DNA from: an uncultured Methanobacteriaceae archaeon
GTDB lineage: Archaea; Methanobacteriota; Methanobacteria; Methanobacteriales; Methanobacteriaceae
Length of the DNA: 64,000 nt
Assembly: GCA_963703015.1 (NCBI GenBank)
Contig: OY969779.1
Location: 2,122,328-2,186,327, forward strand
Direction of reading: 5' to 3'
How positions within the stretch are numbered: position 1 is the stretch's first letter; the number at the start of each line of letters is the position of its first letter. Below, piece by piece: positions 14,397-35,761 of the stretch. The notes beneath the pieces are model-generated. The model was not told where the DNA came from and did no database searches. It saw nothing but the letters and a program-made list of their open reading frames with translations. Made by a program: the position numbers and the translations under genes.

Positions 14397-14746
14397 ACTT
14401 TCCCCCTCACCTTCATTCTTTTTAATATTTTATTTCGTTACAATCCCAAAAAAATCAATTTTTTATAGAAATTCTAGAGAATTTTCTATGTAATCGTTAA
14501 TACTAATACTTCTAAAATAATCTTTATAAATGTTTTGTTTATATTTTGATTTTTGTGATGATATGCACTTTATGGAAAATTAGTAGTGAATATAATCACA
14601 AACTCAAATCAAACTCAAATATTTCATGTGAAATTAACCTTCATAATTTTTAAATACAAAATTAAATTGTAATAATTTTCTAAAAAACAGATAATAGAAT
14701 CAAATATTGAATAAAATAAAAAAAAGGAAAAAAAACAAAGATAAAT

Positions 14747-17710: not shown

Positions 17711-17830
17711 TATTAGTTCCCCCAAAACACTAACATATTCCGCAAAATTATTATTATCTATGAATTGGTAGCAAATATAAATATATAAAATTATGTATAA
17801 TCCAGAAATAAGCTTATGTTTATACAATTA

Positions 17831-17870: not shown

Positions 17871-19760
17871 ATGGGTGCAATAGTAGGAATTTTTAATCGT
17901 AATGGACACGAAGTAGATATAAATCACATTAAACGTATGAATAATTGTATTTCATATATTGGGAAGGATGGATCTGCAATTTTAAATAAAGGATCTATAG
18001 CATTTGGTCACCAAATGCTTCACACTACTAAAGAATCAATGAGTGAGAATCTTCCATTCTATGACAAAAGTTCAAGATTAATAATTACAGCGGATGCAAG
18101 GATAGATAATAGGGATGAACTTTCAAAGCATTTAAACATTGAAAACAATTATAAAGTGTCTGATAGTTTTTACATTCTCAAATCTTATCAAAAATGGGGA
18201 GAAAATTGTACCGATAAAATTATTGGGGATTTTGCTTTTGCTATATGGGATATAAATAATGATCAACTGTTTTGTGCAAGGGATCATGTTGGAGTAAAAC
18301 CATTTTATTATTACGTGGATGAAAAAATATTTTTATTTTCAACAGAAATAAAATCATTAATAACAAATCCGCTAGTAAATTATTCTTTAAATGAAAAAAA
18401 AGCGGCATATTATTTGTTAGGTTCCTATGATGACAGGGAAATAACATTTTATAACAATATTTCTCGTTTACCTGCAGCTAACAGATTAATAGTCACTGAT
18501 GATACGTTTGAATTGATTAAATATTGGAGTTTAGATTATAATAAAAAAATTAATTTAGATTCAGAAAATGAATACTTTACCAGTTTTCGAAAAATTTTTA
18601 ATAATGCTGTTAAAGTTCGCTTAAGAAGTGCTTTTCCAGTAGGGGCTATGCTTAGTGGGGGATTGGATTCTTCATCCATTGTTTGCACTGCTCGTAATAT
18701 GTTAATGAAAAACAACAATAGTTATCCATTAAAAACTTTTTCATTAATTTTTGATAACACTCCTGAAGGTGATGAAAGAGAATTTATAAATCATGTAATT
18801 AAAAAAGGATTTATTCAACCTATTTTTATTAATGCGGATAATTATAGCCCTGTATTTGATAATAATCCTATTTTGTGGAATAATGATGAACCAAATAGGG
18901 CATTTAACTTATATTATGATTATTTATTAGATGAAGCTGCAAACAAAAATTCTATAAGAATTTTACTTGATGGATTGGGTGGAGATTCAACAGTTTCACA
19001 TGGAAAGGGATTAGTAGTAGACTACTTAAATAATAATAATTTTAAAAAAGCATTTAATGAAATTAACTGCACATCAAAACGTTTACAACAAAACAAGACT
19101 AAATTATTTGTAAATGAACTTATACTTACTTGTCCAGATTCCTTTTTAATTAAATTTCTGAATAACAATATATTGAAAAATAATAGAAATATATTAAACC
19201 ACGATTTTCAAGAATATATCAACGAACATTATGAATTATTATCTAAAAATAAAATAGTGAATCTCTCAGATAAAGCTAAAGAATATCATTTTAACATGCT
19301 AAATTCTGGTTTGATTCAGCATACATTTGAAGAAATAAACAAAATAACGACCTATTTTAATGTTGAGCAGCGTTATCCATTTTATGATGTCAATTTGTTG
19401 GAATTTTGTTTGGCTGTTCCATCAGAAATAAAACGTAAATATGGATGGGATCGGTTTTTGATGAGACAAGCCATGAATGAAGTTTTGCCTAAAGAAATTC
19501 AATGGCGCGAAAATAAAAAAACAGGAATTAATAGCAACATTAAAAATTTTATATCTCATGATTCAAAATTTATTGACGCTGTGTTAAATGATAATGAAAT
19601 TATTCAAAAATATGTTGATATAGATTTACTTCAAAAACTTTGGGAGGATGTAAAGAAGAATCAAAGACCAAAGGAATTTTTTTTATTGTGGAATGGTATT
19701 TCCTTAGCTTTATGGTTGAACCAATCCAATTTAAATAGTAAAAAATTTAATATATCTTAA
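17871..19760 (+). CDS. Lasso cyclase (asparagine-synthetase-like macrolactam synthetase)
   Basis: AsnB fold: ADARIDNR, GDFAFAIWD, ARDHVGVKPFYY, ATP motif LSGGLDSS, LDGLGGD and RYPFYD. It begins MGAIVG, lacking the glutaminase Cys of AsnB (MCGI). The precursor gene is 32 nt downstream. Confidence 0.85.
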   Translation: MGAIVGIFNRNGHEVDINHIKRMNNCISYIGKDGSAILNKGSIAFGHQMLHTTKESMSENLPFYDKSSRLIITADARIDNRDELSKHLNIENNYKVSDSFYILKSYQKWGENCTDKIIGDFAFAIWDINNDQLFCARDHVGVKPFYYYVDEKIFLFSTEIKSLITNPLVNYSLNEKKAAYYLLGSYDDREITFYNNISRLPAANRLIVTDDTFELIKYWSLDYNKKINLDSENEYFTSFRKIFNNAVKVRLRSAFPVGAMLSGGLDSSSIVCTARNMLMKNNNSYPLKTFSLIFDNTPEGDEREFINHVIKKGFIQPIFINADNYSPVFDNNPILWNNDEPNRAFNLYYDYLLDEAANKNSIRILLDGLGGDSTVSHGKGLVVDYLNNNNFKKAFNEINCTSKRLQQNKTKLFVNELILTCPDSFLIKFLNNNILKNNRNILNHDFQEYINEHYELLSKNKIVNLSDKAKEYHFNMLNSGLIQHTFEEINKITTYFNVEQRYPFYDVNLLEFCLAVPSEIKRKYGWDRFLMRQAMNEVLPKEIQWRENKKTGINSNIKNFISHDSKFIDAVLNDNEIIQKYVDIDLLQKLWEDVKKNQRPKEFFLLWNGISLALWLNQSNLNSKKFNIS

Positions 19761-20055: not shown

Positions 20056-21873
20056 TTGTTGGTGAAAATGATCATAAATACATTTAAAAAAAGTCTAATG
20101 AATCAATACTTAACTAATCTTATAAAATTATTGAAAAAAAAAGTTTCATATTCTCTAATTTTGATGGTTTTAATAAGTTTAACAGAGGGATTTAGTTTAA
20201 TATTGTTAATCCCTTTACTTCAACTGATTGGTATAGATATGGGCTCGGGATCTGTAAACCAAATCGGGGGATATATTTCTATTTTTTTTAATGCTCTTGG
20301 ATTGAAACCTTCCTTGATTTTAGTTCTTATCATATATGTTTTGGTGATAAGTGTAATAGCTATTTTAAATAGAATGCAAAACGTCATCACAGCAGATATT
20401 CAATATCAATTTGCAGCCGATATGCGAATCAATTTGTATAAATCTATTACAAATTCCAATTGGCTTTTCTTCTCAAGGATGAAATCATCTAACTTTGCAC
20501 ATGCCTTGACTAACGAAATAGAAAGGGTGAGCATTGGAACTGGACAGTTCTTAACTTTATTAGCAAGCATAATGATTTTGTTAGTGTATATTATTTTTGC
20601 ACTTAAACTAGCTGGTTTAATTACTGGAGTTATATTCATTGTGGGAGTAATAATTTTGCTAATATTGAGAAAAAAGATTAATAGTTCCAGAACTAAAGGT
20701 GAACATGTTACAACCACTACACAAGATTTATACTCGTCTATAATTCAGCAATTAAATGGCATGAAAACAATTAAGAGTTTTGGCATGGAAGAAGAAAATA
20801 TTAAAATATTTTCTAAACAAACTGATCAAGTAGCACAAACTTACCTTGATACGATTCAAAGTTATGCTGATGTAAAATTACTATTTGACGTTGGAACTGT
20901 GGTCATACTTTCTATTATTGTGTGGCTTTTGATTGAAGTTGTGAACATATCCACTGTAACCCTACTTATTTTAATTTATTTATTTGTGAGAATGATCCCA
21001 CAATTTTCAATAATACAAAGAAGTTATCAATATTTTATAAGCATCCTACCTGCATATAATAATGTAATAACTCTTGAAAAAGAGTGCATCGAAAAAACAG
21101 ATATTAAAGGGCAAGTTAACGACAAAATAAAGTTAAATAACTCAATAACTTTTAATAATGTTTCATTTTCATATTCTAAATCAAATTATTTTTCAATGGA
21201 AAATTTAAACCTTAAAATAAACGCAGGCAAAACAATAGCAATAGTGGGACCTTCTGGTTCTGGAAAAACAACAATTGCAGACATGATTATGGGACTCATT
21301 TTTCCTGAGGAAGGTGAGTTGAAAGTTGATGATCTTACTTTATCTCCAGAACTACTTAGAATCTGGAGAAATCAAATTGGATATGTATCTCAAGAAACTT
21401 TTCTATTTAATGAAAGTATAAGATCTAATCTGATTCTAGCAAATCCCAATGCTACGGATGAAGAGATAATAGAATCTTTAAAATTAGCATCTGCATACCG
21501 ATTTGTTAATAATCTACATGAAGGTTTAGAAACTAATATTGGTGATTTAGGAGTTAAATTATCTGGTGGAGAAAGACAAAGATTAGCATTAGCTCGTGCC
21601 TTACTCAGAAAACCATCTATTTTAATATTAGATGAAGCTACAAGTAACTTAGATTCAGAAAATGAGACAAAAATTATGGAATCACTTGATGAGATTCATG
21701 GTGACATTACAATATTAATAATAGCACACAGGTTGTCCACAATTAAAAATGCCGATTATGTCTACTTAATTGATAAGGGTCGTATTTTGGAATATGGGAC
21801 TAAGGAAAAACTATTAAAAAATGATGAAGGACAATTCAAGTCCATTTATAATTCACAAGGTTTGTATGAATAA
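20056..21873 (+). CDS. ABC exporter, fused TMD-NBD (lasso D-type)
   Basis: N-terminal TM helices, then GPSGSGKT, LSGGERQR, ILILDEATS and IAHRL. No C39 peptidase domain. Confidence 0.92.
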   Translation: MLVKMIINTFKKSLMNQYLTNLIKLLKKKVSYSLILMVLISLTEGFSLILLIPLLQLIGIDMGSGSVNQIGGYISIFFNALGLKPSLILVLIIYVLVISVIAILNRMQNVITADIQYQFAADMRINLYKSITNSNWLFFSRMKSSNFAHALTNEIERVSIGTGQFLTLLASIMILLVYIIFALKLAGLITGVIFIVGVIILLILRKKINSSRTKGEHVTTTTQDLYSSIIQQLNGMKTIKSFGMEEENIKIFSKQTDQVAQTYLDTIQSYADVKLLFDVGTVVILSIIVWLLIEVVNISTVTLLILIYLFVRMIPQFSIIQRSYQYFISILPAYNNVITLEKECIEKTDIKGQVNDKIKLNNSITFNNVSFSYSKSNYFSMENLNLKINAGKTIAIVGPSGSGKTTIADMIMGLIFPEEGELKVDDLTLSPELLRIWRNQIGYVSQETFLFNESIRSNLILANPNATDEEIIESLKLASAYRFVNNLHEGLETNIGDLGVKLSGGERQRLALARALLRKPSILILDEATSNLDSENETKIMESLDEIHGDITILIIAHRLSTIKNADYVYLIDKGRILEYGTKEKLLKNDEGQFKSIYNSQGLYE

Positions 21874-21895: not shown

Positions 21896-22312
21896 TTATA
21901 TCAAGTTACCACTGGCATTGATTTTCAAATCATATTTAATTATATTATGGCTGGTGTCCGGAAAATCTATATAAATTCTTGAAACTCCTTTAGCCGGAAT
22001 TGAAGGCGGGGTTAGATGGGGAGTATCGTTGGTAGCAATAACGTTTCCTTGAGTATCATAGGCTGTTGCAATTATTTTTACATTTAAAGCATCATTCGAA
22101 TTGTTATTAACTAGATATCCTCTTATATAATAATATTCAACTCCGTCTGTTCCATTGTAAGTTCCGGATGTAGTATTGTTTGAAAGATAAATTGAATCTT
22201 CTGAAAAGATTTTTTCTCCAAAAGTTCCATTGGGTGCTGTTTTGGTGGTACAACCAGAAATAGCAACTGAAACAATTAGTAAAAGTGTTACACAGATAAA
22301 TTTTTTAAACAT
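21896..22312 (-). CDS. Small lipoprotein (FxLYD-like Ig domain)
   Basis: Lipobox-like ISGC and YIRGYLVN...NVKIIATAYD..GNVI...L.P..IPA. Confidence 0.65.
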   Translation of the reverse strand: MFKKFICVTLLLIVSVAISGCTTKTAPNGTFGEKIFSEDSIYLSNNTTSGTYNGTDGVEYYYIRGYLVNNNSNDALNVKIIATAYDTQGNVIATNDTPHLTPPSIPAKGVSRIYIDFPDTSHNIIKYDLKINASGNLI

Positions 22313-22423: not shown

Positions 22424-23509
22424 ATGTTATATTTAAATAATAATAACTGTTCTAATTTTACTAATGAAGAAGAACTTCTATTATTATGTGCAAGAGAACA
22501 AATTAATAAAGATCATAGAATTAAACTAAGAAATCTTTTGGAAAACGATATAAATTGGGATTATTTACTTAAATTGGCAGCAAAACACAAAATTAAACCC
22601 CTTGTTTATAGTAGCTTAAAAACATTGGATAAAAATAAGATTCCAAAAGAAGTTTTCATAGAATTAGAATCCCATTTTATTAGAAACTTACAAAAAAATT
22701 TGATGTATTTAGGACATTTATATAACATCTTAAAATTATTCCATAATAATAAAATCAAATCTATTCCGTATAAAGGGCCGGTTTTAGCTTTAAATGCCTA
22801 TGGAAATTTAGGATTACGCGAATTTGTGGATCTGGATATATTTGTTCAAAAAAAGGACATAGTGCGCGCAAAAAACGTTCTTGTTTCAAATGGGTACATT
22901 AGTTATATCAAAAATTCAGGGTTTAAAGAAAATATTTATTACCAATTTCATAGGGACATGTTATTTTTTGATAGCAAACGTAATGTAAATATTGAAATTC
23001 AATGGAATTTCATTGGACAGTCATTCACATACAATGGGAATGTATTCAAAAATCCTAAAAACATCCATTCTACAAAATTAAACAATAAAGAAATTTTTAG
23101 TCTTTCATCAGAAGACATGCTTTTAATTTTATGTATTCATGCTTCAGGCCATTTATGGGAACAGATATCTTGGATATGTGATATTGTTGTATTCATTAAT
23201 GTCAACAAGATAAACTGGACTAGTCTCATTAAAAAAAGTAAAATATTAGGTTTTAATCGAATATTAAATATAAACCTTCTCTTATCAATGGAATTGTTTG
23301 ATTTGAAAATTCCAAACGAATTTTCAGAATTAATATCCAATGATGAATACTCTAAAAAATTGGTCTCAGATATTATAAAAATCCTTTTTCAAAGTGAAAG
23401 CTCAGGAAGAAGAAATTTTTACCTTTTTAAGATGCGTTACAAACTTAGGGAGAATCCCGTTCAAGGATTTAAAGATTTTATCAAAATAATAGTTTCAAAC
23501 TTGATATAG
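22424..23509 (+). CDS. Nucleotidyltransferase family protein (NTP_transf_5-like, lasso-cluster type)
   Basis: Motifs YKGPVLA..AYG..GLREFVDLDIFV, IEIQWN and EDMLLILCIHASGH.W...W.CD. Confidence 0.82.
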   Translation: MLYLNNNNCSNFTNEEELLLLCAREQINKDHRIKLRNLLENDINWDYLLKLAAKHKIKPLVYSSLKTLDKNKIPKEVFIELESHFIRNLQKNLMYLGHLYNILKLFHNNKIKSIPYKGPVLALNAYGNLGLREFVDLDIFVQKKDIVRAKNVLVSNGYISYIKNSGFKENIYYQFHRDMLFFDSKRNVNIEIQWNFIGQSFTYNGNVFKNPKNIHSTKLNNKEIFSLSSEDMLLILCIHASGHLWEQISWICDIVVFINVNKINWTSLIKKSKILGFNRILNINLLLSMELFDLKIPNEFSELISNDEYSKKLVSDIIKILFQSESSGRRNFYLFKMRYKLRENPVQGFKDFIKIIVSNLI

Positions 23510-23665
23510 ATACATAGTAACATAAATATTATTAAAACCTTTAATATAAATTTATAATAAATATTTGAAGATAAAACTATTTTATATTTTATTATTTGGT
23601 GAATGCCAAATTAAAGAATGTTTGATATTTTATTGGAGTTATCCTAATGAATTTGGAGAATTTAA

Positions 23666-24607
23666 ATGGAAAATGATAAAATATTGGTAACTGGTGGGGC
23701 CGGATTTATTGGAACAAATCTGGTGAATGAATTGAAAAATAGGGGACATGAAGTTGTTGCTGTTGATTTAGTAAATACTGATAATACAGATTATGTTCGA
23801 GCAGATGTAAAGAATTATAGACAACTTGAAAATGTTTTCGATTCCAACAAATTTGACTATGTGTACCACCTTGCTGCAGAATATGGTAGATGGAATGGTG
23901 AAGCATATTATGAAAATCTATGGCAAACCAACGTCGTAGGAACGAAACACATGCTTCGTTTACAAGAAAAATTAGGTTTTCGAATGATATTTTTTTCATC
24001 AGCTGAAGTATATGGGGATTACAATGGTGTCATGAGTGAAGATGTCATGGAAAAGAATTCAATTAAAGACACTTATCAAATGAATGATTATGCAATAAGT
24101 AAATGGGCTGGAGAACTTATGTGTATGAATTCTGCTACCATGTTCGATACTGAAACAGTTAGGGTGAGACCAGTCAATTGTTACGGTCCAGAAGAACATT
24201 ACACTCCTTATAGGGGATTTATTCCATTATTTATTTACCTGGCATTGTTTGGTAAACCATATAATGTGTACAAAGGGCATAAAAGAATAATAGATTACGT
24301 TGAGGATACCGTTAAAACATTTGCAAATATTTTGGATAATTTTAAACCGGGAGAATCGTATAATGTTGGCGGAAAACAAGAATGGGAAAGGGAAATAAAG
24401 GATTATTCTGATTTAATATTAGATGCTGTTGGAGTGGATGATTCAATAGTAACTTACCATGATGCAGAACCATTCACAACTCAAGTTAAAACAATAGATT
24501 TTTCCAAGTCAATTAAAGATTTAAAGCATGATCCGAAGGTAACTCCTGAAGAAGGAATAAAGAGGACAGTTGAATGGATGAAATGGTATTATAGGATTGG
24601 TGAATAA
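23666..24607 (+). CDS. NAD-dependent epimerase/dehydratase
   Basis: Motifs TGGAGFIG, HLAA, SSAEVYG and YAISK. Confidence 0.9.
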   Translation: MENDKILVTGGAGFIGTNLVNELKNRGHEVVAVDLVNTDNTDYVRADVKNYRQLENVFDSNKFDYVYHLAAEYGRWNGEAYYENLWQTNVVGTKHMLRLQEKLGFRMIFFSSAEVYGDYNGVMSEDVMEKNSIKDTYQMNDYAISKWAGELMCMNSATMFDTETVRVRPVNCYGPEEHYTPYRGFIPLFIYLALFGKPYNVYKGHKRIIDYVEDTVKTFANILDNFKPGESYNVGGKQEWEREIKDYSDLILDAVGVDDSIVTYHDAEPFTTQVKTIDFSKSIKDLKHDPKVTPEEGIKRTVEWMKWYYRIGE

Positions 24608-24609
24608 AT

Positions 24610-25602
24610 TTGAAGTTTTCAGATTACAGTGGAAAGACAATATTAGTTACTGGGGGTGCGGGTTGTGTTGGTAGTAACCTTTGTAAAACACTCTCCGAAT
24701 TGGATGCTGCTAACATATTAATATTTGACAACCTTTCATCTGCATACGAATGGAACATGCCTAAAGCAGATAACATAAAATTCGTGAAGGGAGATATATT
24801 AAACGATGAAGACCTGAAAAGAGTTTTTAAGGAAAAACCGGATTATGTGTTTCATTTAGCTGCTCATTTTGCTAACCAAAATTCTGTTGACAACCCTGAA
24901 AAGGATTTAATGGTTAATGGTATTGGTATTTTGAAAGTTTTAGAGTATGCTCAGTTAGTTAATGTTGATAGATTCGTATATTCCTCATCTGGCTGTGGAG
25001 TTTATGGTTTGGATTCAAAAATGCCTTTCAGAGAGCATGATATTTCAATTAATTTACACACACCTTATCAAGTCACGAAACTGTTAGGTGAGCTATACAC
25101 CAATTATTTCCATAATCTTTATGATCTGCCCGTTGTTAATGCTCGATTTTTCAATGTATTTGGTCCTGGTGAAGTTCCTGGAAAATATCGTAATGTAATT
25201 CCCAACTTTTTTTATTGGGCTATGAATGGGCAGCCATTACCCATAACTGGAGATGGTACTGAAACTAGAGATTGGACATTTGTTGAGGATATTGTTGAGG
25301 GTTTACTTTCGATGGGTGTGTTTGAGAACGCTATTGGTGAAGCAATAAATTTGGGTTCATCTCATGAAACTCGAGTTGGGGATATGGCTGAGATGGTAAA
25401 TCAGTTAACAAACAATAGATCTGGAATTAAATATACAGAAAGACGTGATTGGGATGCTAAAACATGTTTGTTGTCTTCCATTGACAAAGCATCTGATATT
25501 TTGGGGTATAAACCTGAAATCAAATTTGAAGAAGGTATGGAAAAAACTCATAAATGGTTTGTTGATAATTGGGAAAATATCAATAGGAGTGCTGAGTTTT
25601 GA
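24610..25602 (+). CDS. NAD-dependent epimerase/dehydratase
   Basis: Motifs TGGAGCVG, HLAA, YQVTK, RFFNVFGP and GDGTETRD. Confidence 0.9.
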   Translation: MKFSDYSGKTILVTGGAGCVGSNLCKTLSELDAANILIFDNLSSAYEWNMPKADNIKFVKGDILNDEDLKRVFKEKPDYVFHLAAHFANQNSVDNPEKDLMVNGIGILKVLEYAQLVNVDRFVYSSSGCGVYGLDSKMPFREHDISINLHTPYQVTKLLGELYTNYFHNLYDLPVVNARFFNVFGPGEVPGKYRNVIPNFFYWAMNGQPLPITGDGTETRDWTFVEDIVEGLLSMGVFENAIGEAINLGSSHETRVGDMAEMVNQLTNNRSGIKYTERRDWDAKTCLLSSIDKASDILGYKPEIKFEEGMEKTHKWFVDNWENINRSAEF

Positions 25603-26756
25603 AAATACTGGTTGTACAGGAATCAGATTGGATTAAACGCAACCCTCATCAACAACATCATCTTATGGAACGATTATCGATGAGGGGACATGATATTCGA
25701 GTAATTGATTATCCAATTGATTTCAAAGAAGAAAAGGGCTTGATCCATAGAAGGAAAGTCACAAAAGATTATAAAAAGATTCATACTGATGCCAATATAC
25801 AAGTGATAAGTCCAAGTATTTTGAAGATCCCATATTTGGTTTATCCTTCATTGTTATTTAGTCATAATCGTGAAATTCATCGTCAAATTAAAGAATATAA
25901 ACCAGATATAATAATCGGTTTTGGAATAATCAACACTTACTTGGCATCCAGAATAGCCAAAAAGGAAAAAATACCCTTCATTTACTATTGGATTGATGTT
26001 TTGCACATGCTTATTCCGGATAAGGGTTTTGAAAATATTGGGGAATATTTAGAAAGGTTGACAATTAAAAATTCAGATTTGGTTCTAACAATCAATCATA
26101 AATTGGAAGAAGTAGTAAAAAATTTAGGGGCCAAAAATACTGGTGTTATAGGTGCGGGAATTGATCTAGATAAATTCGATCATAATTTAGATGGATCAGA
26201 ACTTAGAAAAAATTTAGGTATAAAAGAAGATGAAAAAGTTTTATTTTTTATGGGTTTTTTATATCACTTTTCAGGACTTAAAGAAATTATATTGGAAATT
26301 TCAAATGTTGAGCATCTGAATTTCAAACTCTTAATAGTAGGTGATGGGGAGGCTTATTCAGATCTAAAAAAAACAATTGAAAAGTATAAACTAGAAGACA
26401 AAGTTTTCTTAGTAGGTCGTAAAGATTATAAAGAAATACCAAAGTATATAGCAGCTTCAGATATCTGTATTTTACCTGCTGATCCTAATGAAAGGATAAT
26501 GCAAGATATTGTTCCAATAAAATTATATGAATATATGGCCATGAGTAAACCTGTGATAACAACGAAACTCCCTGGAATTATGATGGAATTTGGTGAGGAA
26601 AATGGAATACACTATGTTGACAAACCTTCAGATGTTCTAGATAAGGTATATAATATTGATGTTAATGATGAAGGAAGAAAATCACACAAATTTGCTAAAA
26701 AAAATGATTGGATAAAGATCACGGATGAATTTGAAAAATCTTTAAAGATAAAATAA
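25599..26756 (+). CDS. GT4 glycosyltransferase
   Basis: GT-B fold with FMGFL, IVGDG and PIKLYEYMAMSKPVI. Confidence 0.85.
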   Translation: MKILVVQESDWIKRNPHQQHHLMERLSMRGHDIRVIDYPIDFKEEKGLIHRRKVTKDYKKIHTDANIQVISPSILKIPYLVYPSLLFSHNREIHRQIKEYKPDIIIGFGIINTYLASRIAKKEKIPFIYYWIDVLHMLIPDKGFENIGEYLERLTIKNSDLVLTINHKLEEVVKNLGAKNTGVIGAGIDLDKFDHNLDGSELRKNLGIKEDEKVLFFMGFLYHFSGLKEIILEISNVEHLNFKLLIVGDGEAYSDLKKTIEKYKLEDKVFLVGRKDYKEIPKYIAASDICILPADPNERIMQDIVPIKLYEYMAMSKPVITTKLPGIMMEFGEENGIHYVDKPSDVLDKVYNIDVNDEGRKSHKFAKKNDWIKITDEFEKSLKIK

Positions 26757-26769
26757 TGGGGAATTTTTA

Positions 26770-27823
26770 ATGGAAAAACTTCTAGTGGGTATCGTGGGAT
26801 GTGGATTGATTTCTAAATTAAGACATATTCCTTCTTATAAAAGTATTAAAAATGTGGAATTAGTTGCAGTGTGTGATTTAAATGAAGAATTAGCTAAAAG
26901 AACTGCTAAAGAATTTAATATACCTAGATATTATACTGATGCCAAAAAAATGTTTGAATATGAAAATTTGGATATTGTTGACATTTGTGTTCCTCCACAG
27001 ATACATGCACCTATAGCAATTGATGCTATGGAAAGTGGATCACATGTAATAATGGAAAAACCCATGGCAACAAAGGTTTCTGACTGTGAAGAAATGATCA
27101 GAACATCCAAAGATAATGAAGTAAAATTATCAATTGTGCACAATGATCTATTTCATCCTCCTTTTATAAAAGCTAAAGAAATGTATGAAAATGGTGAAAT
27201 TGGAGAATTTCGAGGAATGAAAATATTTTTGTCCACACCCAAACAAGATATGTTGGATCTGAAAGATTATTGGTATCATAAGCTTCCTGGAGGGGTTATT
27301 GGTGAAACAGGTCCCCACATATCGTATATGTCATTACAGTTTCTGAAAAATATACAAAATGTTGATGTATTTGCAAAGAATTTTTTAAATTATTCTTGGG
27401 CTCCTTATGACGACTTTAGAGTTGAAATTGAGGGACAAAATGGATTTAGTTCGGTTGCTTTATCTTATACAACTAATTACTGGGCTGCAACAGTAGATAT
27501 TATCGGATCTGATGCTTTGTTACAAATAGATCTAAATTCTATGACTATCATTAAGCATGATTTAAATGAGTTAAGTTATGTTCCTATTGCTAAACAGACT
27601 TTAGGATCGGTAGGTCAAAAATTGGGTAATACCATATCAAAAGCAGCTAATGTTGTGTCAGGAAGACAAAAAAATTGGCACTGAATTAGTAATCGAAAAG
27701 TATGTGGAAAGCATTTTAAATGGAACCCCACTTCCTGTAACTCCTGAAGAAGGTCTAGAAACTACAAAATTGATGGAGATAGTTGTAGCCACTTTTGAAG
27801 AAAAATATTTATCAAGTGAATAA
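26770..27823 (+). pseudogene. Gfo/Idh/MocA oxidoreductase interrupted by a +1 frameshift at an A7 tract (27668-27674)
   Basis: The ORF-track product 26770..27684 (GIVGCG, VAVCD, EKPMA) lacks the C-terminus. The +1 frame continues KIGTELVIEKYVESILNGTPLPVTPEEGLETTKLMEIVV...SE to TAA 27821-27823, 1 nt before the next ATG. Confidence 0.75.
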
Positions 27824-27824
27824 T

Positions 27825-29003
27825 ATGAAAATATTACAAGTTTCTAACTCTTTTAAACCAGCATGGGAGACAGGCGGCACAACTAGGGTTGTATACGATA
27901 TATCACATCAATTGGCTAATCTAGGACATGAGATAACTGTTTATACAACTGATAGGGGTCAAGAGCGTGTTAAAATTCAGAAAAATAGTTCAGTTGTTGT
28001 TGACAACTTTGTTGTGTATTATTTCAGAAATATCTCCAACTATTTAGCAATGAAATTGAATATTGTGACTCCATATTACTTATTTTTCGCAGCGAGAAAA
28101 CAAATAAAAAAATTTGATGTAATACACATCCATGAACATAGAACTTTTTTAGCGGTGGTAGTAGCATATTTTGCAAGAAGATATAATGTACCATATATGG
28201 TACAAGCACATGGTTCTGTAATGCCATTTTATCAAAAAACATTAATTAAAAAAATATTTGATAAGTTATGGGGCAACAATATTTTAAATGGTGCTTCCAA
28301 AGTCATTGCTTTAACTAAAATAGAATCTCAACAATATGAAAAAATGGGAATTGATGAGACGAGAATTGAAATTATTCCTAATGGGATAAATTTATTTGAA
28401 TATAAAAAATTACCAATCAAAGGTAAATTTAGAAAAAAATATGATATTAAAGATGATGAAAAAATTATTTTATATTTAGGAAGATTAAATCGGATAAAAG
28501 GGATAGATGTGCTATTAGAGGCTTTTTCTGATCTATTAATTGATACAAAAAATGTTAAACTTGTTATTGCAGGTCCTGATGATGGATTACTTAAACTTTT
28601 ATTGGAATTATCAATTAAATTAAAACTCGATGATAAAATTATATTTACTGGGCCCATTTATGATCTGAACAAAATTGAAGCTTATATAGACGCAAATGTC
28701 TATGTTTTACCTTCTGTTTATGAAACATTTCCCAATACTGTAATTGAATCATGTGCATGTGGTACTCCAGTGATCATAACGGATAGATGTGGTATTTCAA
28801 ATTTGATTAAAAATAATGTGGGATGTATAGTGACATTAGATAAAGAATCTTTGAGGCAGGCTTTAAAATGTATGTTGGAAAATGAACAATTTCATAATAA
28901 AATGGCTAATAATTGTAAAAATTTTGTAAATTCAGAATTTAATTTAAAAAATACTATGCATAAATTGGAAAGCATTTATTCCCTTAGTGATGAATTTGAT
29001 TAA
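27825..29003 (+). CDS. GT4 glycosyltransferase
   Basis: Motifs MKILQV, GG, HIH, HG, IPNG, YLGRL...KG and ETFPNTVIES.ACGTPVI. Start moved from TTG 27795 to ATG 27825. Confidence 0.88.
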   Translation: MKILQVSNSFKPAWETGGTTRVVYDISHQLANLGHEITVYTTDRGQERVKIQKNSSVVVDNFVVYYFRNISNYLAMKLNIVTPYYLFFAARKQIKKFDVIHIHEHRTFLAVVVAYFARRYNVPYMVQAHGSVMPFYQKTLIKKIFDKLWGNNILNGASKVIALTKIESQQYEKMGIDETRIEIIPNGINLFEYKKLPIKGKFRKKYDIKDDEKIILYLGRLNRIKGIDVLLEAFSDLLIDTKNVKLVIAGPDDGLLKLLLELSIKLKLDDKIIFTGPIYDLNKIEAYIDANVYVLPSVYETFPNTVIESCACGTPVIITDRCGISNLIKNNVGCIVTLDKESLRQALKCMLENEQFHNKMANNCKNFVNSEFNLKNTMHKLESIYSLSDEFD

Positions 29004-30153
29004 TGGGGTTACTAAATTGGTTGCAGAAACATCAAAACAAATTATTAAGGTAGCCTTTATAACAAATATTCCTACTCCTTATAGAAAGAAACAGTGGGAA
29101 TATTATTCAAAATGTAAAAATTTGGATATAACTGTTTTTTATTGTGCTAATACAGAAGATCGTCTTTGGAAGATTAATTCAGCTGAAGGTATTAAAGAAG
29201 TGTTTTTAAAAGGCTGGTCTTATAAATCGTATCATTTCAATATGGAAGTTTTAAAAGTAATTTCACAAGATTTTGATGTTTTTTTTGTCGGTGGTTACGG
29301 ATATCCTTCTTTGATAATGGCAATTTTAGGATTAAAAATACTAAAAAAACCATGGGTCATGATTATAGATGGAATGTCTCCTTTAAAATTGGTTAAAACT
29401 AATTTTATTTCTAATTTTTTTAAGAACTTTATTATTAATGGTGCAAGTGCATATTTTGCTAATGGTAAGGTTAGTAAAGAATATTTAACAAAATATGGAG
29501 TTTTACCCGAAAAAATTTTTAATCAATATCTGACCGTAGATGTTAACGAATTTATTAATAAAGGAATAAATGCTAAAGAAATTAAAAAAAATGTTAGAGA
29601 TGGATATGGGATACCCAACGATTCCATTGTTATTATGTATTCTGGACGCCTAATATATAAAAAAGGAGTTCAGGATTTACTTGCAGCTGTAAAAAAGCTT
29701 GAAGACAAAGAATATAATATCGTAGTATTAATAGTTGGGGGCGGCGATTTTAAGGAGGAATTAGAGAGGAAATCTCAATTATTGAAATTAAACATAATAT
29801 TCACAGGACATATTGATCCTGAAGAGTTATATAAATATTATTACACTTCAGATATTTTTATTCTTCCTACACATGATGATCCATGGGGATTAGTTGTAAA
29901 CGAGGCCATGGCGTGTGGCCTTCCAATTATAATAACAAAGAATGCAGGTTCTTCGATTGATTTAGTTGAAAATAATGGATATGTTGTCTCTGCACATAAT
30001 GTTCAATCTATAGCTTCAAATATTGAAGAGTTACTAGATAGCAAAACTCGTATTATTGCAGGGATTAACTCCAAAAAATTAATTTCAAATTGGACTTATA
30101 AAGAAAGTCTTAATAGTTTTTTAGAATTACTTAGATATTTGAAGCTTTTTTAG
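28987..30153 (+). CDS. GT4 glycosyltransferase
   Basis: Motifs YSGRL...KG, VGGG and DPWGLVVNEAMACGLP. Confidence 0.88.
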   Translation: MMNLINGVTKLVAETSKQIIKVAFITNIPTPYRKKQWEYYSKCKNLDITVFYCANTEDRLWKINSAEGIKEVFLKGWSYKSYHFNMEVLKVISQDFDVFFVGGYGYPSLIMAILGLKILKKPWVMIIDGMSPLKLVKTNFISNFFKNFIINGASAYFANGKVSKEYLTKYGVLPEKIFNQYLTVDVNEFINKGINAKEIKKNVRDGYGIPNDSIVIMYSGRLIYKKGVQDLLAAVKKLEDKEYNIVVLIVGGGDFKEELERKSQLLKLNIIFTGHIDPEELYKYYYTSDIFILPTHDDPWGLVVNEAMACGLPIIITKNAGSSIDLVENNGYVVSAHNVQSIASNIEELLDSKTRIIAGINSKKLISNWTYKESLNSFLELLRYLKLF

Positions 30154-30188
30154 AAAACAGATCATTATACAAAATTGTTAGGTGTAGT

Positions 30189-30992
30189 ATGGTTAAAAAT
30201 TATCGTAATAAATCAAATTTAGTAAGTATTATTGTTCCTGCTTATAAACCAGATAAGTATCTTAAACAATGCATTGAAAGTTTATTAGTACAAAATTACC
30301 CTTTTTTTGAAATAATTTTAGTCATAGAAGAATCTGATTTGGTTAGTAAGGAAATATTAAAAAATTATTCTAACTATAAAAATTTAAATGTAATTATTGA
30401 GAAAAAAAATTTAGGCCCGGCTCACACACGTAATATTGCTATTAGAAATTCTAATGGGAAATATATTTCTTTTTGTGATGTTGATGATTTATTTAGTCCA
30501 AAAAAAATTGAAAATCAGATTAAATTGATAAATGAAGAATATGGTTTGCTATATTCTGATTTTTTTTTAGTTAATGAAAATAATGAGATCATTGAAGAAA
30601 TTAAGACACCAGAATGGGATTTTAATAAGTGGATCAGATCAGGTTATATAGCATTTTCAACTGTTTTTGTAGAAAAAAGGTTGATTGAAAAAGTTAATTT
30701 AATGGATGAAGATCTGAATTCAAATGAGGATTTTGATTTATTGATCAAACTTTCAAAGATAACTAAATTTAAACGAGTTCCAAAAAGTTTAGCCTACCGA
30801 CGAATACATGATTCAAATCTTTCAAAAAATACCAAAACGCTGATTTCTAGATATCATATATACAACAAATATAATTATAAATATTTGGCAGTATATTCTG
30901 TTGTAGTGGGATTTATATATTCTAATATTTTTTATTTTTTAATTAAGTATTCTACATTCTACAAAATAATGAAAAAAGTATTGAATAAATAG
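30189..30992 (+). CDS. GT2 glycosyltransferase
   Basis: Motifs VSIIVPAY, GPAHTRN, DVDD and EDFDL. Confidence 0.88.
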   Translation: MVKNYRNKSNLVSIIVPAYKPDKYLKQCIESLLVQNYPFFEIILVIEESDLVSKEILKNYSNYKNLNVIIEKKNLGPAHTRNIAIRNSNGKYISFCDVDDLFSPKKIENQIKLINEEYGLLYSDFFLVNENNEIIEEIKTPEWDFNKWIRSGYIAFSTVFVEKRLIEKVNLMDEDLNSNEDFDLLIKLSKITKFKRVPKSLAYRRIHDSNLSKNTKTLISRYHIYNKYNYKYLAVYSVVVGFIYSNIFYFLIKYSTFYKIMKKVLNK

Positions 30993-32045
30993 TTAACTAA
31001 TGATTTTGTTGTATTCGATTAAGATATTTTTAGCTATATTCTGCCATGAAAAATTGTCAATGATATAATTTGATAAATCCGTTTTTTCGTTTAAATTCAT
31101 TCCTTTCTCAATCCCTTTCTTAATTGAATTAAGATTTTTTGGGTCACAGTAAATGACTTTATCTTTGAAATATTCTTTAGTGGATCCTCTATCGGTTATC
31201 ACTAAATTACAACCTGCTAAACTGGCTTCTAGCGCAGCTATTCCGGGTGTTTCAAGCCAAGATGGTAATACAAAACATTTAGCAGCATGATAAGCAGATC
31301 TTAACATTTCAGAATTATGTGGAATGTTGCCTAAAAAATTTACATTATTTCCAGCATTATTTTTACACATCATGTAATATTCAGGATCACTATTAGTATC
31401 TCCTATTAAAACTAATTTATGGGAACTATCATTAACAGCTTTAATTAAAGTCAGAACATTTTTTTTAGGTTCAATACGACCTACAAATAATATAAAATTT
31501 TCCATATTATATTTGTCAATGAAAATGTTTTTATCACCCTTTCGATAAAAACTTTCTACACCATTATGTATTACACTCATGTTGTTTTTAAATTTGAAAT
31601 TATTGGACAGGTGTTTAGCTTCTAATTTTGAATTAGGCATTATTATATTTGCATTGTTAAGATAATAATTAACTGGATTTAAAAGAGGTATACTATAACT
31701 TAGTTTCCTTTCAGAGATTTTTTGTAATTCTTTTGTTAAAACAAATATCTTCTGTGAAAATGTTTTTGAATCATTTATTTCTTTTTCAAAACTGTTCCAA
31801 TAAACTGGTGTTAATACTATTGGAATATTTAAATTTTTAATGTGTTTTATTAAATTTAAGTGTTCTATAGAATTTGAACCAAAAAGATGATAAATGTCAT
31901 AATCGGATATTTGATCTTCAAACTTATTGTAATATTTAACTTCTACCCCTAACTTCTCTAAGTACTTCTTAGTCTGTGACATTTGCACTTCTTGGCCGCC
32001 ATGATTTTGAAGAGTTAAACTATGTGTATCAAAAAGCACTTTCAT
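30993..32045 (-). CDS. GT4 glycosyltransferase
   Basis: Motifs GG.EVQ, FVGRIE..KN and ETPGIAALEA...G. Confidence 0.88.
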   Translation of the reverse strand: MKVLFDTHSLTLQNHGGQEVQMSQTKKYLEKLGVEVKYYNKFEDQISDYDIYHLFGSNSIEHLNLIKHIKNLNIPIVLTPVYWNSFEKEINDSKTFSQKIFVLTKELQKISERKLSYSIPLLNPVNYYLNNANIIMPNSKLEAKHLSNNFKFKNNMSVIHNGVESFYRKGDKNIFIDKYNMENFILFVGRIEPKKNVLTLIKAVNDSSHKLVLIGDTNSDPEYYMMCKNNAGNNVNFLGNIPHNSEMLRSAYHAAKCFVLPSWLETPGIAALEASLAGCNLVITDRGSTKEYFKDKVIYCDPKNLNSIKKGIEKGMNLNEKTDLSNYIIDNFSWQNIAKNILIEYNKIIS

Positions 32046-32113: not shown

Positions 32114-34264
32114 ATGTTACAATTTTTATCGATTAATAAATTGGAATTAAAGAAATTTTTAGGCTTAGTACTATTAATTCAGATAATTATATTAGGTTTA
32201 GTGGGCATGGACCTATTAGGATTTCCTATTCCTATCTTAAGAGAGTTTTTTGGTTTTATATACTTATTAATAATCCCTGGACTTTTATTGTTGAGAATTT
32301 TTAATATAAATGAAACTTCTATTCCTGAACATTTATTATATTCTGTTGGATTGAGTTTATCTACACTAATGTTTTTGGGATTATTGTTAAATCAATTATT
32401 TAGTCATTTTCATCCATTGGATTCAACATTTCTATTACTTACACTTACAATATTGGTTTTAGGCTTATCACTAATCTGTTATTTAAAGGAAAGGAATAGT
32501 CTTAATACTTATCAAAAACCTTATAAAATGAATATTGAAATCTTTAAAAATCCAATTAGCTTAATTTTAATTTTATTACCTTTTATATCAATACTCAGTA
32601 CTTACTTAATGAATTATTATAATCAAAATTTACTTTCTTTATTTTTAATTTGTTTAATTTGTTTAATTGTAATTTATATTACTCTAAAAAGTTCTATTCC
32701 AAATTACATATATTATTTAGCCATTTTTTCAATTTCAATATCTCTTCTGTATAATACTACATTAATTACAAATTATATATGGGGCGGAGACATTCAATAT
32801 GAATATTATCTTTCTAATTTAGTCTTGAAAAACTCTTTTTGGGATCAATCAACTCCTATTGGTATTAATGGGATGTTAAGCATTGTAATGTTGGCCCCAA
32901 TATTTTCAAAAGTAATGAATTTAAATTTGATATGGGTTTTCAAACTTGTTTATCCAACAGTTTTTTCATTATTACCTGTAGCATTATTTAGTATTTACAA
33001 AAAACAGTTTGGAAACAAGACTGCTTTTCTTTCAACATTCTTCTTTATGTCTTTTGTAGTTTTTTATGTTGAAATGATGCAATTAGCAAGACAGCAAATT
33101 GCAGAATTGTTTTTGGTACTTTTAATACTTTTGATGTTGAATAGTGAGTTAAATAATGTGAAAAGATCTTTACTATTTGTAATATTTGGTTTGTCTATTA
33201 TCATTTCTCATTATGGATTATCATATTTATTTGTAATTTTTTTAGGCCTAGTCACATTAATATCAATTTTTGTAAACAGAAACAATTTTAACAAATATTT
33301 TTCAAATTTAACTAAAAATGAATTAACGAATTTTAGTGTCACTTTCATAATTTTGTTCATAGTTTCCGCGTTAACGTGGTATTTATATGTTTCAAGTGCT
33401 TCAAATTTCAATGCTCTCTTACAAGTTTCTAATAACGTAATAATTAATTTGACCGATCTTTTTAATCCAGTAACTTCACAAGGATCAGATCTTATTTTAA
33501 CACAAAGTACATCATTGCTACATAAATCTTCTAAATATATACAATTAATTGCACAAATATTAATAACTATTGGTATTTTAGTAACAATTTTCACATCAAA
33601 GAAAAATAATATCAATAGTAATTATTTGAAATTTTCAATGGCTGCTTTTTTTATATTAGTTTTGAGCATAGTACTCCCATTTTTTGCTAGTGCATTGAAC
33701 GTAACACGTATTTATCATATTGCCCTAATATTCTTAGCCCCATTTTTAATAGTTGGTGTAAAACAGATCTTTAATTTTATAATTACTCATTTTAAGAGAT
33801 TATCTGATTATAGAATATTCAAAAATCCTTTTATAATTTTATCTTTGTTTGTAGTAATATTTTTCCTTTTCAATAATGGTTTCATTTATCAAGTTACTCA
33901 AGATCAACCTACGTCATTTTCTTTTAATAAAAATATAGATACTCCCGAATTCCAGCAGGAGGATGTTTTGGGAGCGGATTGGATATTATATCACCAATAC
34001 AACAAAACAATCTATGCTGATGATGGTCGATATCAAATTTTTGGTGGATTAGGATTACCTTTTAATTTCAAAGACATTTTAGATGTATCTCCGAATAGTT
34101 TAATTTATTTAGGTACTTATAACACAAAAAACCAAATGATTGGAATTTTAATATTTAATAGTACAATTCCTAAAAAAATATATACTCCTGTAAATATTGT
34201 TACCAATAGTAAATCACAGTTATATGACAATGGGGGATCGGAAATATTCTACAATTCATTTTGA
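32114..34264 (+). CDS. DUF2206-family polytopic membrane protein
   Basis: Many TM helices with G.DI..EYY, LARQ.IAE, SHY, R.Y and the C-terminal IYDNG motif. Paralog of 60179..62359. Confidence 0.75.
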   Translation: MLQFLSINKLELKKFLGLVLLIQIIILGLVGMDLLGFPIPILREFFGFIYLLIIPGLLLLRIFNINETSIPEHLLYSVGLSLSTLMFLGLLLNQLFSHFHPLDSTFLLLTLTILVLGLSLICYLKERNSLNTYQKPYKMNIEIFKNPISLILILLPFISILSTYLMNYYNQNLLSLFLICLICLIVIYITLKSSIPNYIYYLAIFSISISLLYNTTLITNYIWGGDIQYEYYLSNLVLKNSFWDQSTPIGINGMLSIVMLAPIFSKVMNLNLIWVFKLVYPTVFSLLPVALFSIYKKQFGNKTAFLSTFFFMSFVVFYVEMMQLARQQIAELFLVLLILLMLNSELNNVKRSLLFVIFGLSIIISHYGLSYLFVIFLGLVTLISIFVNRNNFNKYFSNLTKNELTNFSVTFIILFIVSALTWYLYVSSASNFNALLQVSNNVIINLTDLFNPVTSQGSDLILTQSTSLLHKSSKYIQLIAQILITIGILVTIFTSKKNNINSNYLKFSMAAFFILVLSIVLPFFASALNVTRIYHIALIFLAPFLIVGVKQIFNFIITHFKRLSDYRIFKNPFIILSLFVVIFFLFNNGFIYQVTQDQPTSFSFNKNIDTPEFQQEDVLGADWILYHQYNKTIYADDGRYQIFGGLGLPFNFKDILDVSPNSLIYLGTYNTKNQMIGILIFNSTIPKKIYTPVNIVTNSKSQLYDNGGSEIFYNSF

Positions 34265-35761
34265 TTTTTTTTCAATATTTAAACGACTCCATTTGGAATA
34301 GAAAACCCAGAATAAAATTATTATTGAAATAATAAATAGTATTATCCTAAAAATAAGTGAGTAATTAAGTAAGGTAATTACTGTTTGTAGAGTTATAACT
34401 ACCCAAATTATTAAAACTTCTTTTGATAATATTAAATTTTTTGGAACAACGTCTTTCCATAAATAGAATGGAACAAAAATTAAAGTATTGAAAACATAAG
34501 CTACAATGTAACCTAAAGAGAGTGCTAATGCTCCTAAATCTTTAAGAAGTATGACAGTACTAATTAGAAATATCGCCCAAATTATGTTATCTAAAAACCC
34601 CCACCACATAAGGTTTTTTACAACTAATTTACGCGTGATTCCATCTCTATACGAAGTTATACAGCTCACAAACATCATTAATGCGATTACTTGGATAAAA
34701 ATGTTGGAATTGTAACCACTTCCATAAACAAAACTTATTATTTCTGGGAATGCTATAATTGGTAATGCAAATATTATTACAATAACCCAACTTGAGAATA
34801 CATTAATTGTTTCAAGTTTCTCATTTTTTTCATTTACATTTCCTGCAAGCATTGGTAAAAGTACGTTACCTATCACTGCTGGTAAAAAGTATAATACCGA
34901 TCTCCATTGGTCTGCAGCTGTGAAAATTCCTAATTGACCATACCCTCCAGGGGTATTAATAATAATTATATTTGCAATCCAAATAATTGGCCCTACCATC
35001 ACACTTGATAACATTGTTGGGAAAGATAATTTCCAGATAATATTTTTTTCTTTCCATGATTTTAGATAGTTGATTTTTATTTTAAAGCTTTTTATTAAGG
35101 TATTTACAGTGATTTTATATAAAATTAGATTGATTATGCTGTTGATAACCATTGCAGTGACGGCACCAATTAATCCGAAGAAATATACTCCTGTCACTGT
35201 TAATGAAGCTGATATTATTCCTTGAAAGAATGCTATGCGGGCAAGATCTTTAAATGCTCCAAAACCTGCAATAGAACCTGATTGTATTCCTACTATTGTG
35301 TTGAATATTAAAAGTAACGATGCTATTCGTAATATTGGGGTTAAGTTTGGTGCATTTAATGTATTTGTTGAAAGCCATGGTGCTATTGCAAATAAAATAG
35401 CAAACATTATAATCCCTGATATTATTCCGAATAGGTTTGTAAGCCCCATGATTCTACCAGTACGTTCAGGATCTGATTTATGGTATTGTGCTATATATTT
35501 CGTGGCTGTTATTCCCAATCCTAATCCTGCAAATGTTGAAAAAAGGATTACAGTACTGTTAATCATTCCCAGCTGCCCATAACCAAATGTACCTAAAATA
35601 CGGGCCGCAATTATTGTCGCAATCAAAGGAAATCCCGAAGAAGCTAAAGCACTAATAAGATTCCAAAAAATGCCATATACTAACTTACCTCTCATTCCAT
35701 CGTGGTTATCCCCTACAATGTTTCGTATCAATCCTTTCAATGATGTTTTTATTTTGCTCAT
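34256..35761 (-). CDS. Oligosaccharide flippase (Wzx/MATE-like)
   Basis: Motifs ARILG...YG and G...T..IA, about 12-14 TM helices, and G.F.AA.QW. Confidence 0.85.
   Translation of the reverse strand: MSKIKTSLKGLIRNIVGDNHDGMRGKLVYGIFWNLISALASSGFPLIATIIAARILGTFGYGQLGMINSTVILFSTFAGLGLGITATKYIAQYHKSDPERTGRIMGLTNLFGIISGIIMFAILFAIAPWLSTNTLNAPNLTPILRIASLLLIFNTIVGIQSGSIAGFGAFKDLARIAFFQGIISASLTVTGVYFFGLIGAVTAMVINSIINLILYKITVNTLIKSFKIKINYLKSWKEKNIIWKLSFPTMLSSVMVGPIIWIANIIIINTPGGYGQLGIFTAADQWRSVLYFLPAVIGNVLLPMLAGNVNEKNEKLETINVFSSWVIVIIFALPIIAFPEIISFVYGSGYNSNIFIQVIALMMFVSCITSYRDGITRKLVVKNLMWWGFLDNIIWAIFLISTVILLKDLGALALSLGYIVAYVFNTLIFVPFYLWKDVVPKNLILSKEVLIIWVVITLQTVITLLNYSLIFRIILFIISIIILFWVFYSKWSRLNIEKKSK

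Follow-up and report, generated by a model that had tools for sequence, protein, structure and literature searches.

Paeninodin from Paenibacillus dendritiformis is a kinase-tailored lasso peptide, phosphorylated on its C-terminal Ser (summarised in PMC6993621 and PMC7533575). In the pseudomycoidin cluster of Bacillus pseudomycoides, psmCAKB1B2ND, the nucleotidyltransferase (NTase) PsmN is required for the addition of one or two hexoses to the phosphoserine of the peptide, and its D134A/D136A variant is inactive, indicating that the DxD motif is essential (Zyubko et al. 2019, PMC6993621). Here we examined a stretch of 64,000 nucleotides (nt) from an uncultured Methanobacteriaceae archaeon (GenBank assembly GCA_963703015.1, contig OY969779.1, positions 2,122,328 to 2,186,327), hereafter the window, in which an NTase gene, N, lies between lasso-peptide genes and a surface-glycan cluster. 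This junction is kept in ten genera of the family and recurs in unrelated bacteria, suggesting that the lasso peptide may be decorated with sugar through the neighbouring pathway. A first-pass annotation, made from the letters of the window, had cited pseudomycoidin as a precedent in which a kinase and an NTase yield a phosphorylated and glycosylated lasso peptide, and had quoted it correctly (PMC6993621).

N belongs to the NTP_transf_5 family (Table 1). In an alignment of 22 homologues, K117-G118-P119 and D138 are invariant and D136 is nearly invariant; as read from this alignment, these residues are the GS/DxD signature of NTases. A search of solved structures by sequence with an N profile found no relative, and a fold search was used instead. 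With the AlphaFold (AF2) model of N (pLDDT 89.7, pTM 0.90) as query, the top PDB matches in Foldseek were LnuA (E 8.8e-4) and ANT(2'')-Ia, including 5cfs and 4xje, which are also cited for PsmN (PMC6993621); FKRP was only a weak match. The nearest named homologues are those of Methanobacterium sp. ERen5 (56% identity) and M. paludis (42%), and the host organism is a Methanobacterium. Its genome, a single contig of 2.72 Mb, carries one copy each of N, the lasso kinase gene K, the leader peptidase gene B2 and a lipoprotein gene that precedes N. Like PsmN, N combines PF14907, a DxD motif and an ANT(2'')-like fold with an HprK-like kinase and a Ser-bearing precursor alongside, a likeness drawn from family, motif, fold matches and gene set and not from direct alignment. 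Most likely, N serves a kinase-dependent lasso pathway as a tailoring enzyme of the PsmN type and acts on a lasso peptide bearing phosphoserine. Among related loci (L and G numbers are our labels for loci and genomes), two N-containing open frames, of 546 amino acids (aa; L045, G085) and 516 aa (G208:C34:105819-106565), exceed the length of about 360-410 aa seen elsewhere; these frames in L045 and G208 may encode an N protein with an extra domain.

Upstream of N, the lasso block proposed in the first-pass annotation proved to be real: K, B1, B2, C, the precursor A and D were all recognized by Pfam and NCBIfam models. With curated-model scores over or about the cut-off, the lasso gene set in the window is, as judged from its sequence, complete but split, and of the paeninodin/pseudomycoidin type, with N as its final gene. 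Like the paeninodin (pade) cluster, it has a lasso kinase, a split B enzyme and an ABC exporter; unlike it, it has N, which the pade cluster lacks (PMC6993621), and a glycan neighbourhood, which is not reported for pade. It shares with the pseudomycoidin cluster the cyclase, the precursor, the HprK-like kinase, the split B1/B2, the ABC exporter and an NTase with a DxD motif and an ANT(2'')-like fold, as well as a Ser at or near the C-terminus of the peptide. It differs from that cluster in its archaeal host, in the splitting of the lasso genes by about 8 kb of opposite-strand adhesin-like genes, in the opposite-strand lipoprotein gene between D and N, in the penultimate position of the Ser, and in that N abuts a 12-kb surface-glycan cluster. 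The top NCBIfam matches of D were the HepA family, MsbA and PglK, all under cut-off. Orthologues of K sit in the lasso blocks of relatives. The first-pass annotation had also alluded to HprK-related gene sets of exopolysaccharide (EPS) loci, and this allusion did not hold for K, which falls outside the EPS-associated HprK-related kinase A and B families (TIGR04352 and TIGR04355; 29.4 and 33.5 bits against cut-offs of 200).

The precursor A consists of the leader MPKKTEKKQVYNKPILKKYGDITKLTL and the core GPDGFGGDKDGGSG, with the leader end YNKPILKKYGDITKLTL directly before the core. It follows the lasso pattern of a YxxPxL...T-x leader and a Gly-first core with Asp or Glu at positions 7-9, in the form YNKPIL...T-L and then G1...D8, and its macrolactam ring is predicted to join Gly1 and Asp8. 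The single Ser of the core is the penultimate residue. Homologous precursors are present in the loci of 34 relatives; all share the leader YxKPxL..HG....T, and their cores are hypervariable and rich in Gly and Asp. About half of these 34 precursors end in Ser and many others have a Ser in the last three residues, which fits tailoring by K and N at that Ser.

Downstream of N, a 156-nt gap is followed by seven plus-strand genes, encoding two epimerase/dehydratases (Epi1 and Epi2), one Gfo/Idh/MocA oxidoreductase and four glycosyltransferases (GTs), in exact agreement with the first-pass annotation, which had placed same-strand epimerases, an oxidoreductase and four GTs about 150 nt after the NTase gene. 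The cluster extends beyond the interval covered by that annotation (22424-30992). With enzymes modifying nucleoside diphosphate (NDP)-sugars, several GTs and a Wzx flippase in one locus, it has the composition of a Wzx/Wzy-type surface-glycan cluster; no priming phosphoglycosyltransferase was seen within it, and the DUF2206 protein is at a guess the polymerase or ligase. For the sugar genes at 25599-30992, NCBIfam gave sub-threshold similarities only (EPS, teichuronic-acid and UDP-GlcNAc 3-dehydrogenase models). Because no NCBIfam equivalog was reached over its cut-off by any sugar gene, Epi1 and Epi2 included, the sugar of the cluster cannot be named.

To analyze the conservation of this junction, we annotated 20-40 kb around N from 39 relatives against the proteins of the window. 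Homologues of N were found in 58 of the 201 sampled family genomes (11 of 27 genera) and in no other family of the phylum; the lasso cyclase model matched 61 of the 201 genomes, largely those with N. Downstream sequence of 6 kb or more was available for 37 loci; in 33 of them, spread over 10 genera, two or more sugar-type genes lie in the 6 kb that follow N, and in 36 there is at least one. When random 6-kb windows of the host's own genome were scored in the same way, only 3.1% contained two or more. The adjacency of N and sugar genes is thus far beyond chance, and synteny of lasso genes with GT clusters across methanogens, which the first-pass annotation had put forward as a check, is borne out. 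Among the 115 genes in the three positions after N, Pfam identified 32 epimerase/dehydratases, 27 GT1/GT4 and 19 GT2 enzymes, 6 Alg13-like and 6 Alg14-like proteins and 3 NTP_transferase proteins (sugar-1-phosphate nucleotidyltransferases); sugar-enzyme families account for at least 80% of these genes.

Across the relatives, the order of K, B1, B2, C and the DUF11 gene varies by genus, with at least five internal orders, and the near-constant unit is D, the opposite-strand lipoprotein gene, N and the glycan cluster. The lipoprotein gene keeps its place between D and N in 35 of the 39 relatives (34-66% identity). In four genomes N stands ahead of D, and there the glycan cluster follows the lipoprotein gene. 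In genus g25 (L082-L084 and L067 of G024; L066 and L085-L087 of G060), an inverted lasso block is found at a distance of 37-42 kb from N, and the interval between D and the lipoprotein gene contains additional sugar genes (GMD-like, epimerase and GT4); N nevertheless heads a glycan cluster there too. Since the module of D, lipoprotein gene and N is kept at the head of a surface-glycan cluster, we read its position as functional. The splitting of the lasso genes is likewise not peculiar to the window: a minus-strand DUF11 gene lies within or next to the lasso block in 31 of the 39 relatives, indicating that the split is a conserved family-wide feature and not a recent insertion. Such genes also stand beside secondary cyclase-precursor loci, and the host's own genome has only 13 DUF11-like genes.

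As a finding that would speak against its proposal, the first-pass annotation had named lasso blocks without glycan genes. The only such blocks were seven secondary loci, in which C and the precursor, in some cases with K, sit beside a DUF11 gene; none of the seven has an adjacent glycan cluster, and all lack B1/B2, D and N as well. Presumably the main cluster supplies in trans what these loci lack, or they need no B enzymes, as has been reported for pseudomycoidin.

The more distant homologues of N are bacterial. In a clade of Acidobacteriota loci (L096-L100, assigned by similarity; Pfam annotation was run on L092, the same place as L096, and on the related JGI metagenome contig L093), the gene order is B1-B2-C-precursor-K-N, except that L098 has no B2 or precursor match and L100 starts inside C at the contig end. 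N is followed within two genes by a GT2 gene in L096, by a GT4-like gene in L093 and by a DegT sugar aminotransferase gene in L096, L097, L099 and L100; neither a GT nor a DegT gene was detected at this place in L098. Wzy, Wza and Wzc then follow in L097, L100 and L093, and L099 reaches Wzy at its end; L096 and L098 show none of the three. A similar arrangement is found on two taxonomically unassigned metagenomic contigs. In one, K-D-N precedes genes for a deacetylase, an acetyltransferase, Wzz, a BY-kinase-like ATPase and a GT4; in the other, D-N is followed by an epimerase, PIG-L and GlcNAc 2-epimerase, with GT2, PqqD and an AsnB-like gene further on. Other homologues of N stand alone or in kinase/PqqD/radical-SAM cassettes (SCM-type or N-K-PqqD-radical SAM), without sugar genes. 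These contexts indicate that N chiefly works alongside HprK-like kinases in peptide systems, and that the N genes abutting sugar genes are the lasso-linked ones. A scan of the genome collection with an Acidobacteriota-led N profile gave 460 hits; the 80 loci listed were all bacterial and nearly all labelled Acidobacteriota, and most were not lasso-linked, N being found in an N-K-PqqD-radical SAM arrangement or alone by a hybrid histidine kinase and pentose-phosphate genes. We take these loci as a contrast and not as support. A recurrent Acidobacteriota operon comprises N, an HprK-like kinase, PqqD, a radical SAM/SPASM protein and a protein with CBM96 and a PQQ-like beta-propeller, lies downstream of a PAS/GAF hybrid histidine kinase and has no lasso genes; it is apparently a different kinase/NTase-tailored peptide system.

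Published bacterial clusters resemble the junction in several respects. In Paenibacillus alginolyticus, clusters for linear polyphosphorylated peptides (LPPs), with an adjacent lasso cluster (pba), lie in polysaccharide-biosynthesis loci and are upregulated together with an eps gene, and the authors raise the possibility that the peptide is modified by sugar genes nearby; deletion of lppN had no effect in a heterologous host, suggesting a partner outside the cluster (Nat Commun 2026, PMC13381572). The window shares with these clusters a module of K, RRE, MsbA-like D and NTP-transferase in polysaccharide surroundings. LPP clusters are bacterial, with a signal-peptidase-like protease and no cyclase, whereas the window is archaeal and has a cyclase and B2, and no S24/S26 peptidase domain was found among the open reading frames (ORFs) of 348-42555 scanned with Pfam; the window thus falls outside the LPP class. 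Among lasso clusters of rumen Firmicutes, 85% have kinases, 36% glycosyltransferases (GT2, EpsH) and 30% a nucleotidyltransferase, and those of Butyrivibrio hold N, HprK, GT2 and EpsH (Sabino et al. 2020, PMC7533575). These clusters likewise combine lasso genes with an HPr kinase, a nucleotidyltransferase and glycosyltransferases, although there one or two GTs are cluster members, in bacteria and without an analysis of family-wide conservation, whereas in the window a whole Wzx-type glycan cluster follows. The arrangement described here therefore extends to Archaea a pattern that is already on record for Firmicutes. Davasins, which are glycosylated by the iterative GT IgtG (PMC11912497), resemble the proposed product in being lasso peptides glycosylated on Ser; unlike in the window, the GT acts straight on the Ser hydroxyl of the mature lasso, without a kinase/NTase route.

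From these comparisons we propose a pathway in which A would be bound by B1, cut by B2 and cyclized by C between Gly1 and Asp8. K would then phosphorylate the single near-C-terminal Ser, N would use a nucleotide-activated donor to turn the phosphoserine into a phosphodiester-linked sugar, and D would export the modified product. The neighbouring epimerases/dehydratases would supply the NDP-sugar to N, and the neighbouring GTs may extend the sugar. The analysis shows what the genes are, which catalytic motif and fold N has, and that the junction is conserved and recurs in other lineages; the phosphoserine acceptor, the donor and any use of products of the neighbouring cluster we infer. That N takes its donor from, or passes its product to, the adjacent glycan pathway has comparative support from several lineages, and we give it about an even chance.

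Several observations weigh against such a tie. Relatives without lasso genes hold Epi1-led glycan clusters that lack N (Epi1 75-81% identical); the glycan cluster is autonomous and the lasso module accessory. At the conserved upstream flank in a genome of the same genus (L187, G116), K and C survive only as fragments, one C piece containing a stop, and this is a decaying lasso cluster. The genes after N are hypervariable between loci, and N is never translationally coupled to them: among the relatives, 29-582 nt (median about 200 nt) separate N from the next same-strand gene, with no case of overlap, and the gap in the window contains TATA-like boxes, which were spotted by eye and are not decisive in AT-rich DNA. 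The genes inside the window's glycan cluster overlap or sit 2-13 nt apart. Furthermore, PsmN adds hexose in E. coli without dedicated sugar genes (PMC6993621), many N homologues reside in the kinase/PqqD/radical-SAM cassettes without sugar genes described above, and the Methanobacteriaceae loci are non-independent observations. We also built trees of N and D from 33-41 loci. Genera are perfectly reproduced on the D tree, which needs the minimum of 8 changes and has a median terminal branch of 0.19. On the N tree they are intermixed with strong support: it takes 17 changes where 10 would be the minimum, and its median terminal branch is 0.42. N, with a mean pairwise distance of 0.61 versus 0.41 (about 1.5 times more divergent), evolves faster than D, which lies only two positions away, and differently, which suggests that a boundary of recombination or rate falls between the lipoprotein gene and N. 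This contrast prompted the idea that N travels with the variable glycan cassette, which we dropped on the following results. A multi-state cassette label changes 16 times on the N tree and 15 times on the D tree, and a partial Mantel test of N distance against cassette dissimilarity, controlling for D distance, was not significant (r 0.08, p 0.14), a further point against a tie. Only a post hoc binary label (Epi1-type or other) tracks the N tree better than the D tree, with 6 changes on the former (reached by 0 of 500 shuffles) and 9 on the latter (reached by 106 of 500). Accordingly, the lasso-glycan link drawn in the first-pass annotation stands as to synteny and as to recurrence in Acidobacteriota, metagenomic contigs and Firmicutes (PMC7533575, PMC13381572), and is weakened by the autonomy of the glycan cluster and by the lack of robust co-variation with N.

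Much of this evidence would also be expected if the lasso cluster had been inserted once beside a hypervariable glycan locus in the Methanobacteriaceae ancestor and had been inherited there as a conserved flank, as in O-antigen loci, with N using a housekeeping NDP-hexose or nucleotide and having no biochemical tie to its neighbours. The wider region is syntenic, since the upstream flank genes GT2-RR, GMD, TPR-CAAX, x204, x214 and DUF1616 are retained in several genera, and the genus-true D tree, the glycan clusters without lasso genes, the variable cassette content that does not co-vary with N, the separate, promoter-like spacer and the activity of PsmN on its own in E. coli (PMC6993621) all fit this explanation. 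We consider this explanation, the main rival, rather unlikely: the adjacency recurs in Acidobacteriota, in the two metagenomic contigs and in published Firmicutes clusters, the junction persists through many local rearrangements, N stays with the glycan cluster in genus g25 when apart from the lasso block, and the incongruent N tree makes simple vertical descent of N doubtful. A role of N in the adjacent pathway could also take a different form, in which K and N would activate the Ser-phosphate, for example as a peptidyl-NDP, and the peptide would be joined by a phosphodiester to the neighbouring glycan or to a lipid-linked precursor, decorating a cell-surface polymer instead of being secreted as a free compound. 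The chemistry of the NTase fold, which normally moves a nucleoside monophosphate onto an acceptor (the nearest folds being LnuA, ANT(2'') and, weakly, FKRP), is compatible with this, as are the fact that N heads the glycan cluster even where the lasso block lies elsewhere, the surface proteins (DUF11 and lipoprotein) conserved inside the locus, the resemblance of D to exporters of lipid-linked glycans and polysaccharides as much as to peptide exporters, and the outside partner suspected for LppN (PMC13381572). We judge covalent attachment improbable, given that pseudomycoidin is a free peptide with only one or two hexoses (PMC6993621), that the cores are hypervariable as in diffusible lasso peptides, and that the glycan cluster of relatives functions without lasso genes. 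The first-pass annotation had raised a surface or biofilm role instead of an antibiotic one, and this is speculation.

N, perhaps with D and the lipoprotein, might instead work for the glycan pathway and, for instance, nucleotidylylate or phospho-modify a sugar, with no part in peptide tailoring. Intact N occurs in a few genomes without a detected lasso cyclase (G108, G130, G123, G100, G134, G138 and G141), N evolves faster than D and differently, and its nearest folds modify sugar-like small molecules. By contrast, bacterial PF14907 homologues accompany HprK-like kinases and PqqD in peptide systems, some without sugar genes; the presence of N goes with that of the cyclase in most of the 201 genomes; the glycan clusters of lasso-less genomes lack N; and the genetics of PsmN (PMC6993621) place it in peptide tailoring. 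There is only a slight probability that N acts in this way, and tailoring of the lasso peptide by N in connection with the adjacent glycan pathway remains our preferred explanation.

The positions of the features are given in Table 1. Conservation of the lipoprotein gene equals that of the lasso genes in this locus, and roles in immunity, in binding or as an export partner are possibilities for its product. Within the glycan cluster, a 110-nt gap separates the short Gfo/Idh/MocA oxidoreductase gene from the next gene. Just beyond the flippase gene, a 340-aa ORF (36308-37330, minus strand) has sub-threshold similarity to phage integrases (N-terminal SAM-like and catalytic domains) and may mark a boundary of the cassette.

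Table 1. Features of the lasso-glycan locus in window coordinates, followed by groups of related loci
Feature	Position	Strand	Evidence or remark
K, HprK-like serine kinase	8214-9140	+	Pfam Hpr_kinase_C, E 1.4e-6
B1, PqqD-type leader-binding chaperone (RRE)	9205-9495	+	NF033536 lasso_PqqD_Bac, 76 bits, just under cut-off 80
B2, transglutaminase-like leader peptidase	9492-9899	+	PF13471; NF033537 lasso_biosyn_B2, 73.8 bits, cut-off 33
Three opposite-strand surface-protein genes splitting the lasso cluster	9894-17827	-	repeat protein and two DUF11 proteins
Repeat protein	9894-10742	-	one of the three splitting genes
Two DUF11 adhesin-like proteins	11046-14396, 14747-17827	-	PF01345 DUF11, 5-7 repeats
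C, lasso macrolactam cyclase (AsnB-like)	17871-19760	+	NF033535, 644 bits, cut-off 525; Pfam Asn_synthase and GATase_7
A, precursor peptide, 41 aa	19793-19918	+	NF033521 lasso leader, 20 bits, cut-off 19
D, MsbA/HepA-like ABC exporter	20056-21873	+	Pfam ABC_membrane and ABC_tran
Small lipoprotein, 138 aa, between D and N	21896-22312	-	lipobox-like AISGC; NF038353 FxLYD, 23.2 bits, cut-off 23
N, PsmN-type nucleotidyltransferase	22424-23509	+	Pfam PF14907 NTP_transf_5, 187.5 bits
AT-rich spacer N-Epi1, 156 nt	23510-23665		TATA-like boxes TTTAATATAA, TTTATAATAA; GGAG ahead of next ATG
Epi1, NDP-sugar epimerase/dehydratase	23666-24607	+	PF01370/PF16363
Epi2, NDP-sugar epimerase/dehydratase	24610-25602	+	PF01370/PF16363
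GT4	25599-26756	+	Pfam
Gfo/Idh/MocA sugar oxidoreductase, 304 aa, C-terminus short	26770-27684	+	Pfam
GT4	27795-29003	+	Pfam
GT4	28987-30153	+	Pfam
GT2	30189-30992	+	Pfam
GT4	30993-32045	-	Pfam Glycos_transf_1; glycan cluster beyond 22424-30992
DUF2206 polytopic membrane protein	32114-34264	+	Pfam DUF2206; beyond 22424-30992
Wzx-type flippase	34256-35761	-	Pfam Polysacc_synt; beyond 22424-30992
Secondary lasso loci	L072 (G077), L073 (G093), L074 (G081), L075 (G148), L079 (G124), L081 (G150), L088 (G159)		
Recurrent Acidobacteriota N-K-PqqD-radical SAM operon	L102, L106, L107, L114, L115, L122, L123, L127-L131, L162 and others		

A literature search on methanogen lasso clusters tied to glycans found nothing. 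The locus would be the first sign in Archaea of a tailored lasso peptide, possibly one with a link to a surface glycan, and would bear on the way in which methanogens of gut and sediment make and vary their surfaces. For enzymes of the PsmN/LppN type, the junction points to where a partner or donor may be encoded, and its conservation names concrete candidate partner genes for N. If the link is positional only, the window holds an archaeal paeninodin-type cluster beside a variable glycan locus. If surface attachment were true, Methanobacteriaceae would show hypervariable lasso peptides on a hypervariable cell-surface polysaccharide, and the lipoprotein and DUF11 adhesin-like genes would be part of the same surface module.

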